From positions 2,560,001-2,624,000 of the forward strand of contig CAWKDB010000010.1 in the NCBI GenBank assembly GCA_963848295.1: a DNA stretch of 64,000 nucleotides. The letters are read 5' to 3'. The translations under genes and the position numbers were made by a program. How positions within the stretch are numbered: the first letter of the stretch is position 1; the number at the start of each line of letters is the position of its first letter. This DNA comes from an uncultured delta proteobacterium. Its GTDB lineage: Bacteria; Myxococcota_A; Polyangia; Haliangiales; Haliangiaceae. Of the stretch, positions 24,368 to 28,640 are shown one piece after another. The notes under the pieces are model-generated. The model saw only the letters and a program-made list of their open reading frames with translations, searched no databases and had not been told where the DNA came from.

Positions 24368-24685
24368 TCAAGCCGAGACGTGTCGCTTCTTCTCGAGCAG
24401 GCGCTTCGCTCGTATGCGTACGCGTTCGACGTCTCGATGCTCGGGACGCACATAACCCTGAGGGAACAGGATCTGGTGAGGCTCGATCCCGAGAGCGGCG
24501 GCCAGAAGAACCGCTCGGCGCACGCCTACATCGATCCGGTCATGCTCGATCGCCGATAGATTTGTGTAGCTAACGCCGGTGATCTGCTCGAGCTCCTTAA
24601 GGGTGAGGCCGAAATTCGTGCGAAACGCGCGGACGATTCGTCCGGGCGTTGCCTTGACCTGCGCTAGATCAAAAAAGTTCTTCAT
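24368..24685 (-). CDS. XRE-family HTH antitoxin (HigA-like)
   Basis: TPGRIVRAFR..LTLKELEQITGVSYTNLSAIE; ATGA overlap with the toxin gene. Confidence 0.8.
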   Translation of the reverse strand: MKNFFDLAQVKATPGRIVRAFRTNFGLTLKELEQITGVSYTNLSAIEHDRIDVGVRRAVLLAAALGIEPHQILFPQGYVRPEHRDVERVRIRAKRLLEKKRHVSA

Positions 24686-24984
24686 TTCTTTCTCCGGTAG
24701 TCGTGATCGGTCGTGATGCGAACCACTGCGACGGTCACGACTTGTTGTTCGACCTTGTAGATGATTCGACCTACATGACTGAAGCTCGAAGCGCGGTGAC
24801 CACGCCATTCACCGTAGAGCGCATGGTCTGCCCACATGCCGGGGCGCGCGGCTAAGCATTCTGGTCCGAGATCACGCACGAGCTCGGCCCATTTCTGAAT
24901 CACGATCTTGTCGTCGGTGGTGAGCGCTTTGCCTTGGAATACGAGGGACGCCTCGTGTGTGATGTTCACCGTCCACTTGGCCAT
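24682..24984 (-). CDS. RelE/YafQ-superfamily toxin
   Basis: DHALYGEWRGHRASSFSHVGRIIYKV motif; 100 aa; upstream of an HTH gene. Confidence 0.8.
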   Translation of the reverse strand: MAKWTVNITHEASLVFQGKALTTDDKIVIQKWAELVRDLGPECLAARPGMWADHALYGEWRGHRASSFSHVGRIIYKVEQQVVTVAVVRITTDHDYRRKK

Positions 24985-25733: not shown

Positions 25734-26003
25734 CTACCGAGCGTCGCGCAACGCTGCCTCGAGCTCGGCGATCCGCTTGCGAGCCGCGGCGAGCTCGTCG
25801 CGCAGTCGCAAGATCACCTCGACCCCGGGCCAACCGACCTCGAGCTCGCGCACGAGCGTGTGCGCGACGAGCACGCGATCGACGTCGACCAGCGCGCGGT
25901 CGTCGCCGACCCGGGTGATCTCACCTTCCTCGACGAGGTGCGCGATCAGGTCGGCATCGCCGCCGACGAGCTCGACCAAGCGTTGATACGTGAACCGGGT
26001 CAT
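25734..26003 (-). CDS. cbpM: CbpM-like chaperone modulator (MerR-like)
   Basis: Overlaps the DnaJ-like gene; LVRELEVGWPGVEVILRLRDEL motif. Confidence 0.7.
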   Translation of the reverse strand: MTRFTYQRLVELVGGDADLIAHLVEEGEITRVGDDRALVDVDRVLVAHTLVRELEVGWPGVEVILRLRDELAAARKRIAELEAALRDAR

Positions 26004-26887
26004 AGCTTCAGCTCCTCGCGTAGCGGTTTGCTGTACGCGGTCGCGCTCGCGTGTAGCGCGGCGGCGAGTGCGGCATCTTCTTTGTCCGGCATCCGGACCT
26101 CGAGCGTCACGAGCAGATCGCCGCGCGCTTCCTTGCGCGCGATGCCCTTGCCGCGCAGCCGCAGCGTCGCGCCGTTCTGCGATCGCGGCGGCACCTTGAG
26201 CACGATCGCGCCGCCGAACGTCGGGACGTCGATGCTCGCACCGCTGTACGCCTCGTCGAGCGTCACCGGCAGCGTCATCTCGAGATCGAGGCCCTCGCGG
26301 CGTAGCCACGGATGCGGCATGACCTCGATCTCGATCACGAGATCACCGGGCGGCCCACCGCGCGCGCCCGGCGCCCCCTTGCCGGCGAGTCGGATCACCG
26401 ACCCGTTGTCGGCTCCGGGTGGGATCCGCACGCGCGTCTGGCCCTGGCCGGGAACGTCGATCGAGATCTCGGTGCCTTCGATCGCCTGGCGCAGATCCAT
26501 CTGCATCGCCGCGTGGACCTCGCCGCCGCGACTCGGTCCGCGCGCGCGGCCGAACAGCTCGGAGAAATCGAACTCGCGCTCGCCGGTGTCGTAGTGCTGG
26601 GCCTGCTGCTGCCGCGTGTCTTGCCAGCGCGCGTACTCGCGGGCCTTCGCAGCGTCGAACCCGCCTTGCAGCGAAGCGTCGCCGAACTCGTCGTACGCGG
26701 CGCGCTTCTTGTCGTCGGACAGCACGTCGTAGGCCGACGAGATCTGCTTGAACCGATCCTCGGCGGCCTTGTTACCCGGGTTGACGTCCGGGTGATGCTT
26801 GCGCGCGAGCTTGCGATACTTCTTGCGGATCTCGTCCGGGCTCGCGCCCTTCGCGACACCGAGCAGATCGTAGAGCGATTCGGCCAT
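26000..26887 (-). CDS. cbpA: DnaJ-class co-chaperone CbpA-like (J domain plus DnaJ_C, no Zn finger)
   Basis: HPD motif and PGDL C-terminal domain. Confidence 0.88.
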   Translation of the reverse strand: MAESLYDLLGVAKGASPDEIRKKYRKLARKHHPDVNPGNKAAEDRFKQISSAYDVLSDDKKRAAYDEFGDASLQGGFDAAKAREYARWQDTRQQQAQHYDTGEREFDFSELFGRARGPSRGGEVHAAMQMDLRQAIEGTEISIDVPGQGQTRVRIPPGADNGSVIRLAGKGAPGARGGPPGDLVIEIEVMPHPWLRREGLDLEMTLPVTLDEAYSGASIDVPTFGGAIVLKVPPRSQNGATLRLRGKGIARKEARGDLLVTLEVRMPDKEDAALAAALHASATAYSKPLREELKL

Positions 26888-26936: not shown

Positions 26937-26945
26937 TGCTATGAT
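26937..26945 (+). promoter_or_regulatory. Extended -10 promoter for the metG leader
   Basis: TGC-TATGAT, 6 nt before the uORF GTG. Confidence 0.6.
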
Positions 26946-26951
26946 GTAGGT

Positions 26952-27023
26952 GTGAACCCCGCGCTGCGAATGCCGATGCCCATGCGCTCTTCGAGAGCAT
27001 CGGGCATCCGTGCGCGCACGTAA
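26952..27023 (+). CDS. Met-rich leader peptide MNPALRMPMPMRSSRASGIRART
   Basis: GTG...ATG CCG ATG CCC ATG...TAA directly upstream of metG. Confidence 0.7.
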   Translation: MNPALRMPMPMRSSRASGIRART

Positions 27024-27095
27024 CTAACGACGCCGAGCGGCTGCCCTCGTGGCGGCTGCAACAACGCGCGAGGGCGGCCTCCGGCAAACCCGGAG
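26975..27095 (+). promoter_or_regulatory. Attenuator-like RNA leader with three hairpins, the last sequestering the SD
   Basis: Stems 26975-27008, 27040-27078 and CTCCGG-CAAAC-CCGGAG 27079-27095. Confidence 0.65.
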
Positions 27096-27101
27096 ATCGC
27101 C

Positions 27102-28640
27102 ATGACCACGTCCTTCATCACGACTGCCATTCCCTACGTCAACGCCCGCCCGCACCTCGGGTTCGCGTACGAGCTCGTCCTCGCCGACGTGCTCGCGCGC
27201 CATCATCGCCGCCGCGGCCGCGTCGTCCGGTTCATCACCGGCACCGATGACAACAGCCTGAAGAATGTCGTCGCTGCGCAGCGCGAAGGCCTGTCGCCGC
27301 GCGCGCTCGTCGACCGCAACGCCGCGGCATTCGCAGGGCTAGGGCCCTTGCTCGGCGTCGCGACCGACGACTTCATCCGGACATCGAGCGATCCGCGCCA
27401 CCTCGCGGCGGTCGATTGGTTGTGGCGCGCGTGCAGCGCGAGCGGCGATTTGTATGTCCAGCGCTGGCAAGGTCGCTACTGCGCCGGTTGCGAGGCGTTC
27501 GTCGACGACGATGTCGCGATCTGCGCCGAGCACGGCACCGCACCGGAGCCGGTCAGCGAGCCGAACTGGTTCTTCCGGCTATCGCGCTGGCGCGAACCGG
27601 TCCGCGACGCGATCGCCTCCGGCCGACTCGAGATCGTTCCCGACGCTGCGCGCGCCGAGATCCTCGGGTTTCTCGACGGCGAGGTTCGCGACCTCAGCGT
27701 GTCGCGCGTCGCGACTAGATCGAGCGGCTGGGGCATTACGGTCCCCGGTGACCCGAGCCAAGTGATCTACGTGTGGTTCGACGCGCTCGCGAACTACCTC
27801 GCCGCGCTCGGTCTCGGCGGTGATGCGGCGTTGCTCGATCGCTATTGGCGCGACGGCGAGACCACGCACGTGATCGGCAAAGGCATCACGCGATTCCACG
27901 CCGCGTACTGGCCGGCGTTCTTGCTGTCAGCCGGCCTGCCGCTGCCCGATCGCATCCTCGTCCACGGCTACCTCACGGTCGACGGCGACAAGATCAGCAA
28001 GTCCGGTCGCAACGTGGAGGTCGCGCCGGTCGTCGAGCAGGTCGGCGCCGATGCGTTGCGCTGGTACTTCGCGCGCCGGTGCCGGACGCGAGCCGACTCC
28101 GACGTCTCGCTCGCCGCGATCTGCGACGCGTACGATGGCGATCTCGCGGACCGACTCGGCAACCTCGTGCAGCGCTGCAGCGCGCTCGCCGCGAAGTTGT
28201 GCGCGGGTTGCGTGCCCGAGCCGAGCGACACGCCGGCCGCGACCGAGCTGCGTGCCCGTGCCGAGGCGCTACCGGCGCGGATCGACACCGCGCTCCGCGC
28301 GTTCCTACTCGACGATGCCGCGGCGGCGATCGTCGACGCGCTCGATGCCGCGAATCGCTACCTCGAGCAGATCGCGCCGTGGCGGTTGCAGCGCAGCGAT
28401 CCGGCCGCGGCCGCCGGCGCTCTCTACGCGCCGCTCGAGCTCGCGCGGTTCGTCGCAGGCGAGCTGTCGCCGTTCGTGCCGGGCGTCGCGCAGACCATCG
28501 CGGCGGCCCTGGGAACCGAGGATCTCGCCGCGCTCTGGGGCGTACTACGAGCGGGACACCCCTTGCGGATCGGTCCGCCGCCACTGCCCCGAAAGGGTGC
28601 GGTTCGCGAGAGATCAGCGACCGAGGCGATCCGGCGGTAG
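27102..28640 (+). CDS. metG: Methionine--tRNA ligase (short form)
   Basis: TTAIPYVNARPHLGF (HIGH), YCAGCE..CAEH knuckle, YVWFDAL and KISKS (KMSKS). Confidence 0.92.
   Translation: MTTSFITTAIPYVNARPHLGFAYELVLADVLARHHRRRGRVVRFITGTDDNSLKNVVAAQREGLSPRALVDRNAAAFAGLGPLLGVATDDFIRTSSDPRHLAAVDWLWRACSASGDLYVQRWQGRYCAGCEAFVDDDVAICAEHGTAPEPVSEPNWFFRLSRWREPVRDAIASGRLEIVPDAARAEILGFLDGEVRDLSVSRVATRSSGWGITVPGDPSQVIYVWFDALANYLAALGLGGDAALLDRYWRDGETTHVIGKGITRFHAAYWPAFLLSAGLPLPDRILVHGYLTVDGDKISKSGRNVEVAPVVEQVGADALRWYFARRCRTRADSDVSLAAICDAYDGDLADRLGNLVQRCSALAAKLCAGCVPEPSDTPAATELRARAEALPARIDTALRAFLLDDAAAAIVDALDAANRYLEQIAPWRLQRSDPAAAAGALYAPLELARFVAGELSPFVPGVAQTIAAALGTEDLAALWGVLRAGHPLRIGPPPLPRKGAVRERSATEAIRR

Follow-up and report, generated by a model that had tools for sequence, protein, structure and literature searches.

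In classical leader-peptide attenuators such as trpL, hisL and pheM-pheST, codons for the cognate amino acid lie in segment 1 of the leader RNA, the choice is between helix 1:2 and helix 2:3, and aminoacyl-tRNA synthetases are among the targets. Control of metG and other met genes by methionine status at the RNA level is known from T-box elements and SAM riboswitches. In the ermC leader, stalling within ermCL rearranges hairpins and frees a sequestered Shine-Dalgarno (SD) sequence, in a manner that depends on the peptide sequence and on the drug. The trpRS1 gene of Streptomyces coelicolor reportedly has a leader as well, presented by Vecchione and Sello in 2010 under a title that calls it transcriptional. 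TrpRS1 itself is indolmycin-resistant according to the accessible text of PMC9437257. For Actinobacteria, the accessible part of PMC1262725 describes trp, cys, leu and trpS2 leaders and no conserved structure before the methionine operons. His leaders precede hisS paralogs in bacilli (PMC2965389, accessible part), and a genome-wide list of leader genes is given in PMC4833913 (accessible part). The mycobacterial polycysteine attenuator Ms5788A has a leaderless sORF that senses charged tRNA and controls access to the SD of the next gene (10.1101/834739, accessible text). A Met-codon attenuator was not found in titles and abstract openings of the full-text literature, where subscription papers or supplements may list one, and the accessible part of 10.64898/2025.12.02.691738 makes no mention of MetRS. 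Methionine is a gap among the leader-peptide attenuators found in print. It is also a hard case, since one synthetase supplies both the initiator and the elongator tRNA and a shortage should therefore slow the loading of the sensor ribosome too.

We analysed a 64,000-nucleotide stretch of DNA (the window) from a Kofleriaceae-like myxobacterium, in which metG is preceded by a short Met-rich ORF and a series of mutually exclusive helices (Table 1). We propose, with moderate confidence, that this conserved Met-codon leader is a ribosome-operated attenuator that exposes the SD of an accessory metG under Met-tRNA shortage. The upstream ORF (uORF), its Met codons, the exclusive helices, the second gene copy and the Met-free protein are present in the sequence itself.

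Table 1. Features of the metG leader; positions are those of the window.
Feature	Position	Strand	Evidence
Extended -10-like promoter element TGnTATGAT	26937..26945	+	Sequence; predicts leaderless transcript
Leader ORF, 23 codons, GTG start, TAA stop	26952..27023	+	ORF; 20-27 codons in 37 relatives
Putative sensor codons Met7, Met9, Met11	26970..26984	+	Met in 34, 35 and 26 of the 37 leaders, respectively
Segment 1, 5' arm of helix 1:2, overlapping the Met codons	26975..26981	+	94.2% of cells paired, mostly one-sided changes
Segment 2, partner of segment 1 or, once freed, of 27037-40 and 27042-46 (helix 2:3)	27002..27011	+	
Segment 3a and 5' extension, predicted switch strand; three exclusive partners: segments 2, 3b and 4/5	27032..27049	+	
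Segment 3b, pairs with 27037-45 to form blocking hairpin H3, loop CTCGT; predicted default, OFF	27051..27059	+	98.3% paired
Segment 4/5, two exclusive partners: 3a, or the RBS via 27073-84 (anti-SD)	27069..27085	+	
Segment 6, SD (GGAG 27092-95) with spacer, masked by hairpin 27073-27101	27090..27101	+	Folds in 37/37 leaders
metG, accessory methionyl-tRNA synthetase, 512 aa	27102..28640	+	TIGR00398, 359.6 bits vs cut-off 336.35

The initial annotation had listed the -10-like element, the GTG-started ORF of 23 codons with its three clustered Met codons, and metG as the downstream gene, and all of these lie where it placed them. The element reads TGCTATGAT and lies 6 nt 5' of the uORF start; the ATG codons begin at 26970, 26976 and 26982. 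Judged from the -10 spacing alone, transcription would start at the GTG at 26952. A sigma-70 scan, whose pattern requires a -35 match, returned no site. The fold of the leader region has a z-score of -2.38, with 4/200 shuffles as good. Of the short ORFs in the same genome, 209 lie just behind a TAnnnT-like hexamer, and two of those have three Met in five codons; the second of the two overlaps the start of another gene on the opposite strand. Two other Met-rich short ORFs of this genome were rejected, as they overlap unrelated genes. A divergent cbpA-like DnaJ gene and a cbpM-like gene (25734-26887, minus strand) are common only to the closest relative, L001. About 50 nt separate the start of the cbpA-like gene from the leader -10, so the promoters must overlap. 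At 24368-24984 on the minus strand are two small overlapping ORFs that we take to resemble a RelE/HigB-like toxin and an HTH antitoxin.

Like the classical attenuators, the window leader has cognate codons within segment 1, and ribosome position is predicted to select between helices 1:2 and 2:3; it differs from them in its Met specificity, in the lack of a terminator in the window lineage and in an extra hairpin pair. The trpRS1 leader likewise places a cognate-codon leader peptide before an auxiliary aminoacyl-tRNA synthetase, but it uses Trp rather than Met and is transcriptional by title, and the window MetRS is likened to TrpRS1 by arrangement, not by sequence or resistance. With Ms5788A the locus would share the leaderless short ORF, charged-tRNA sensing and SD control; in the accessible account of Ms5788A it is the Cys tract that pairs directly with the SD region, and in the window leader the signal would travel 120 nt through three mutually exclusive helices acting as a relay. 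No T-box or SAM riboswitch was recognised: Rfam gave no gathering-score match in the window or in ten related loci (two chance matches in the window at E 1.9 and 9.2), no RNA holder is on record for the region, and the sensor here would be the translating ribosome. As in the ermC leader, stalling is proposed to free a hidden SD; in contrast to the dependence of ermCL on its peptide sequence, the peptide here is not conserved, and six leader peptides had no match in NCBIfam. New at this locus are the three-helix relay of the Kofleriaceae, the count across phyla and the Met-free regulated enzyme.

To establish how far the leader extends beyond the window, the best 80 of 542 confirmed relatives were retrieved, which together with the window gave 74 scorable loci (six lacked the anchor motif and one lacked upstream DNA). 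A uORF was counted if it had 8-40 codons and at least two internal Met within five codons. Such uORFs occur in 64/74 loci, 34 of them with three or more Met, as against means of 2.8 and 0.07 loci in 100 dinucleotide shuffles, and 4/72, 2/70 and 1/63 in control windows 600-1200 nt farther upstream. Under the same rule the next highest amino acids were Arg (58/20), Ala (48/9) and Pro (41/9), with many GC-rich codons. Among eighty metagenome loci, which partly repeat the first set, 66 of the 72 scorable ones carry the Met-cluster uORF. Met-rich uORFs before homologous metG genes, which the initial annotation had suggested looking for, do occur. Housekeeping metG genes carried a Met uORF at 0/19 scorable Kofleriaceae loci and at 1/7 in other phyla, there ending 22 nt before the start. 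The carriers belong to Myxococcota, Actinomycetota, Alphaproteobacteria and Chloroflexota, close kin among them not being independent. In 51/70 leaders the uORF start is preceded at 5-8 nt by a TAnnnT hexamer, compared with about 1% of control start codons, given one to six candidate starts per locus. Myxococcota and Actinomycetota commonly have the hexamer at this spacing, but it is rare among the relatives with terminators described below; at 6-8 nt it is found in 35/37 Kofleriaceae leaders.

Strong matches to the leader and gene start were found in 29/146 other genomes of the order. A gapped leader motif has a single occurrence in each of 21/147 genomes from the order, in every case before an accessory metG; neither these genomes nor 301 others sampled from the phylum have it at another gene, and no regulon was found. 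An 18-base leader motif had twelve matches in viruses, which were discarded as chance because segments 2 and 4 are missing there. Family members L078, L080, L047 and L026 have no Met uORF by the rule and are mostly basal in the tree; the MetRS core of L078 (Saccharibacteria) is still Met-free. Loci L190 and L191 carry a diverged second leader type about 150 nt upstream of metG, in which a Met-rich uORF is followed by a different long hairpin.

For the fine structure we used close kin of the window. From 56 rows, one partial locus, four leaders of other type and 14 duplicates were removed, leaving 37 leaders; one of them, L008, is identical to the locus of G037, a genome flagged unpublished, and no claim depends on it alone. 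Codon 8, between the Met codons, varies (Q, S, R, P, M or A), and the RNA after the Met cluster, although conserved, is translated in different frames, each of the three being used (20/10/7 of 37). This indicates that the codons and the RNA are conserved, not the peptide, in which M-M-P-like motifs recur. Helix 1:2 pairs GATGCCC (26975-81) with GGGCATC (27002-08). H3 has a median probability of 0.95 without a ribosome. Helix 2:3, with a 4-bp extension (27008-11 : 27037-40), is 97.0% paired with one two-sided change. The putative ON helix, 3a:4 (27039-49 : 27069-79, plus 27032-35 : 27082-85), is 99.8% paired with two two-sided changes, or three with the extension, a value reached by 2/500 shuffles; it is the only helix whose changes on both sides exceed the shuffles. 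Covariation is thin (0-2 two-sided changes per helix) because the helices are nearly invariant, and the 37 leaders are close kin. The SD hairpin (-19.6 kcal/mol in the window; -11.1 to -24.4 kcal/mol among the 37) spans the SD and spacer up to the ATG in every leader, and the SD is computed to be sequestered by default in all of them.

Hairpins 26975-27008 and 27040-27078 (27040-49 : 27069-78) of the initial annotation are present, as is its pairing of CTCCGG (27079-84) with CCGGAG (27090-95) over the SD, which proved to be the inner part of the longer hairpin listed in Table 1. It did not contain H3 (27037-45 : 27051-59), the 2:3 extension, the second-copy status of the gene or the Met-free protein. 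Segment 2b and the linker that follows 3b seemed by eye to covary, but their pairing was rejected, being no better than cross-pairing (p = 0.11) with a control pair scoring higher; the linker is better explained as an H3 extension. Self-versus-cross pairing tests were blank for 1a:2b, extension:5, anti-SD:SD and 3a:3b. Extra GC-rich hairpins are inserted in L010 (between uORF stop and segment 3) and in L183 (in the linker), leaving the conserved segments undisturbed. Conserved Met codons, the -10 spacing, the SD hairpin in all 37 leaders and the lack of a U tract uphold the class that had been suggested, and we consider it very likely that the leader is a Met-codon attenuator.

More distant members of the family bear on the level at which the leader would act. 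Leaders of 18 relatives from the same protein clade end in a hairpin and U tract, not counting two actinobacterial loci whose T runs are broken; the terminator form is complete in the alphaproteobacterial and Chloroflexota relatives. In these terminator leaders, the 5' arm of the terminator is captured by uORF RNA before the 3' arm is made with a mean probability of 0.89 under stalling vs 0.41 without a ribosome. Switching under a strict kinetic criterion was seen in 10/18 and at equilibrium in 3/18. Among 40 other U-less leaders, stalling lowered the opening energy of the ribosome binding site (RBS) by more than 1 kcal/mol in 16 and raised it in 7; it falls by about 4-8 kcal/mol in an actinobacterial group with MMPR peptides. 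These computations on distant relatives suggest the direction of the switch, with stalling as the ON condition. L055, L069, L071, L072, L077 and their kin, which are actinobacterial, appear to have a plain domino arrangement, 1:2, 3:4 and 5:6 vs 2:3 and 4:5, with two Met codons.

The same Met sensor could have a transcriptional output in the window as well, with H3 or the SD hairpin causing termination or a pause, either U-less or through Rho, or with Rho ending untranslated metG RNA. The terminator-bearing relatives favor this, equilibrium folding shows no SD opening (below), and for the Cys system the accessible text of 10.1101/834739 describes polarity behind a translational attenuator. However, a U tract is absent from 12/12 Kofleriaceae leaders tested (the window and 11 others), no terminator-like site was found in the window, and the last hairpin covers the SD and spacer up to the ATG throughout the 37. 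We therefore regard a transcriptional output as unlikely, and output at translation in the Kofleriaceae lineage as likely.

With the full leader made, equilibrium folding gave the OFF state at every ribosome position and stalling brought no SD opening. On the single window sequence, folding with ribosome positions, akin to the constrained folding suggested in the initial annotation, yielded no clean switch; with a stalled ribosome the lowest-energy state is 2:3 plus the SD hairpin, which is OFF. RBS opening energy at the last Met relative to the stop was higher in 29/37 and lower in 3/37 leaders with the 5' part masked, and higher in 14/37 and lower in 18/37 with a footprint mask; relative to no ribosome it was higher in 18/37 and lower in 12/37. 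Since equilibrium folding alone leaves the SD closed, the route to the ON state would be kinetic, and it is one that we infer. Opening the RBS costs 3.5 kcal/mol in the window with 3a:4 formed (median 4.7 over the 37); the medians are 11.5 kcal/mol with 2:3 and 11.0 with H3. When 3a has just been made, helix 2:3 (counted over eight footprint settings) forms in 37/37 leaders with the ribosome at the first Met and in 34-36/37 at the last, but in 3/37 without a ribosome, 10/37 with an initiating ribosome and 0-5/37 with the ribosome at the stop. The responsive A-site codons, about 5-13, are centred on the Met codons, and the response closes at codon 15. With the linker behind 3b transcribed as well, equilibrium favors H3 again (0.87-0.89). 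The barriers, which are direct-path, nested, pseudoknot-free estimates with assumed ribosome footprints, have a median of 17.9 kcal/mol (range 12-22) from 2:3 to H3, and of 5.5 from 2:3 to ON vs 15.3 from H3 to ON, the former being lower in 37/37. OFF is the more stable state by 3-6 kcal/mol, and the barrier from ON to OFF is 12.7-22.2 kcal/mol, or about 13 with segment 2 free. These folding estimates make a kinetic ON route plausible, not proven.

The proposed mechanism is as follows. Transcription would start at the GTG and a ribosome would load on the leaderless uORF. With ample Met-tRNA, the ribosome would reach the stop, or leave so that 1:2 forms, and segment 2 would be unavailable; H3 (27037-59) would then fold first and lock 3a, and segment 4/5 would pair with the RBS, giving OFF. 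With Met-tRNA scarce, the ribosome would stall at codons 7-11 and the free segment 2 could pair with 3a before 3b is made. Helix 2:3 would pre-empt H3 and leave CTCG as an open toehold, from which segment 4 may invade to build 27032-49 : 27069-85 before the SD is transcribed, so that the SD emerges free in a metastable ON state. The enzyme could be translated during the shortage because it needs Met only at its start. We give this exact kinetic route, via 2:3 and 3a:4, a slightly better than even chance.

The initial annotation had wired the same RNA differently: OFF would consist of 1:2, 27040-78 and CTCCGG/CCGGAG, and stalling would free the SD through GGGCA:TGCCC and GAGG:CCTC. All of these pairings exist, GAGG:CCTC is paired in 97.3% of cells across the 37 leaders, and the OFF state so defined ties for the lowest window energy (-48.4). 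However, with GGGCA:TGCCC formed, RBS opening costs 12.1 kcal/mol (median 11.5 over the 37), since GGCGG-CCTCC, once released, folds into the complete SD hairpin, and the ON state lies this far above 2:3 plus the SD hairpin; GAGG:CCTC has no two-sided, compensatory change and four unpaired cells. Helix 27040-78, there an OFF element, is instead the likely SD opener, as its formation removes the anti-SD, brings RBS opening down to the low cost given above for 3a:4 and leaves an SD hairpin weaker than -5 kcal/mol in 16/37 leaders. This wiring is very unlikely.

An inverse polarity, in which stalling at Met (2:3 plus the SD hairpin) is OFF and fast read-through gives 3a:4 and ON, would fit the competition of 2:3 with the SD-opening helix and the equilibrium opening energy, which is lowest with the ribosome at the stop and all 5' RNA masked. 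Against it stand the barrier of about 15 kcal/mol from H3 to ON, the classical direction taken by the terminator-bearing and actinobacterial relatives, and a Met-free enzyme that is sensible only if made during shortage; we consider it a distant possibility.

The enzyme behind the leader provides a further line of evidence for attenuation in response to Met-tRNA. The window MetRS is MetRS1-like (closest among solved structures), lacks the C-terminal tRNA-binding domain, and has its nearest relatives in Kofleriaceae (63-86% identical). A second MetRS, on contig C2, is 43% identical and about 680 aa long, with a C-terminal extra domain and no upstream Met uORF, which makes the window metG the accessory copy. 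Two MetRS over the cut-off were found in 13 of 20 other genomes checked and one in 7. The window protein contains one Met, at its start, and nine Cys. Met-free cores (up to 470 aa) occur in 22/23 Kofleriaceae proteins and 66/156 family members; the long ORFs of the genome have a mean of 8.3 Met, with 3/868 having zero, and Kofleriaceae housekeeping MetRS a mean of 6.8 (range 3-10, n = 19 of 20). As Cys is not reduced, sulfur sparing was rejected as the cause of the Met loss. At the level of sequence, the Met-free enzyme is independent protein-level evidence that appears to reflect selection for synthesis under Met-tRNA shortage.

A FastTree phylogeny of the genome-collection cores, rooted on three MetRS of the other type, separated the family from the housekeeping enzymes as a single clade (support 0.91); within it, members with terminators branch outside the U-less ones of Myxococcota and Actinomycetota. 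The HIGH motif is HLGF in the window MetRS and HLGH in Kofleriaceae housekeeping enzymes; it ends in Phe or Tyr rather than His in 89/151 family members (HxGF 81, HxGY 8), including all Kofleriaceae copies. This alteration could bear on inhibitor or ATP binding, which is only a hint. In four Frankia genomes (L041, L060, L062, L070) and Crossiella (L058), the leader-bearing MetRS is the sole MetRS found, so the attenuator would control an essential gene; the 5-6 Met of the proteins in question look regained, as though under a relaxed constraint. Among 49 flanking ORFs from about 33 loci, no family was shared beyond three related loci, and no biosynthetic cluster or Met operon was found. The unrelated neighbors from locus to locus indicate that leader and gene travel as a unit. 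In L027:1-4392, the leader-MetRS cassette lies between selA and selB, apparently inserted into a selenocysteine operon. That the ATGs are kept for RNA pairing, alternative starts or peptide function, as Met9 inside helix 1:2 and the recurrent M-M-P-like motifs might suggest, is most improbable, since Met clusters recur in four phyla on RNAs of unrelated sequence, the A that opens Met7 has no partner in the window minimum-energy fold yet is at least 90% conserved, the peptide shifts frame after the cluster, and the regulated gene is a Met-specific synthetase.

For the Met-codon attenuator, two causes of Met-tRNA depletion are about equally likely: an inhibitor of the housekeeping MetRS, as with indolmycin and TrpRS1, or methionine starvation, with an accessory enzyme of higher affinity. 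More tentatively, and as a whole rather unlikely, leader and gene may form a portable two-part Met-tRNA-shortage rescue cassette in at least four phyla, its attenuator rewired from termination to a kinetically gated three-hairpin translation switch and its MetRS purged of Met and altered in the HIGH motif, whose spread in soil bacteria would point to a natural MetRS-targeting antibiotic or toxin. If that is true, the leader would be a ready-made screening reporter for such an antibiotic or toxin; if the trigger is an inhibitor, it would serve as a biosensor for natural MetRS inhibitors. Relatives are carried by the culturable Rhizobium, Bosea, Frankia and Nocardiopsis, and a widespread natural solution would make the question of how the sensor ribosome loads under Met-tRNA shortage testable in culturable hosts.
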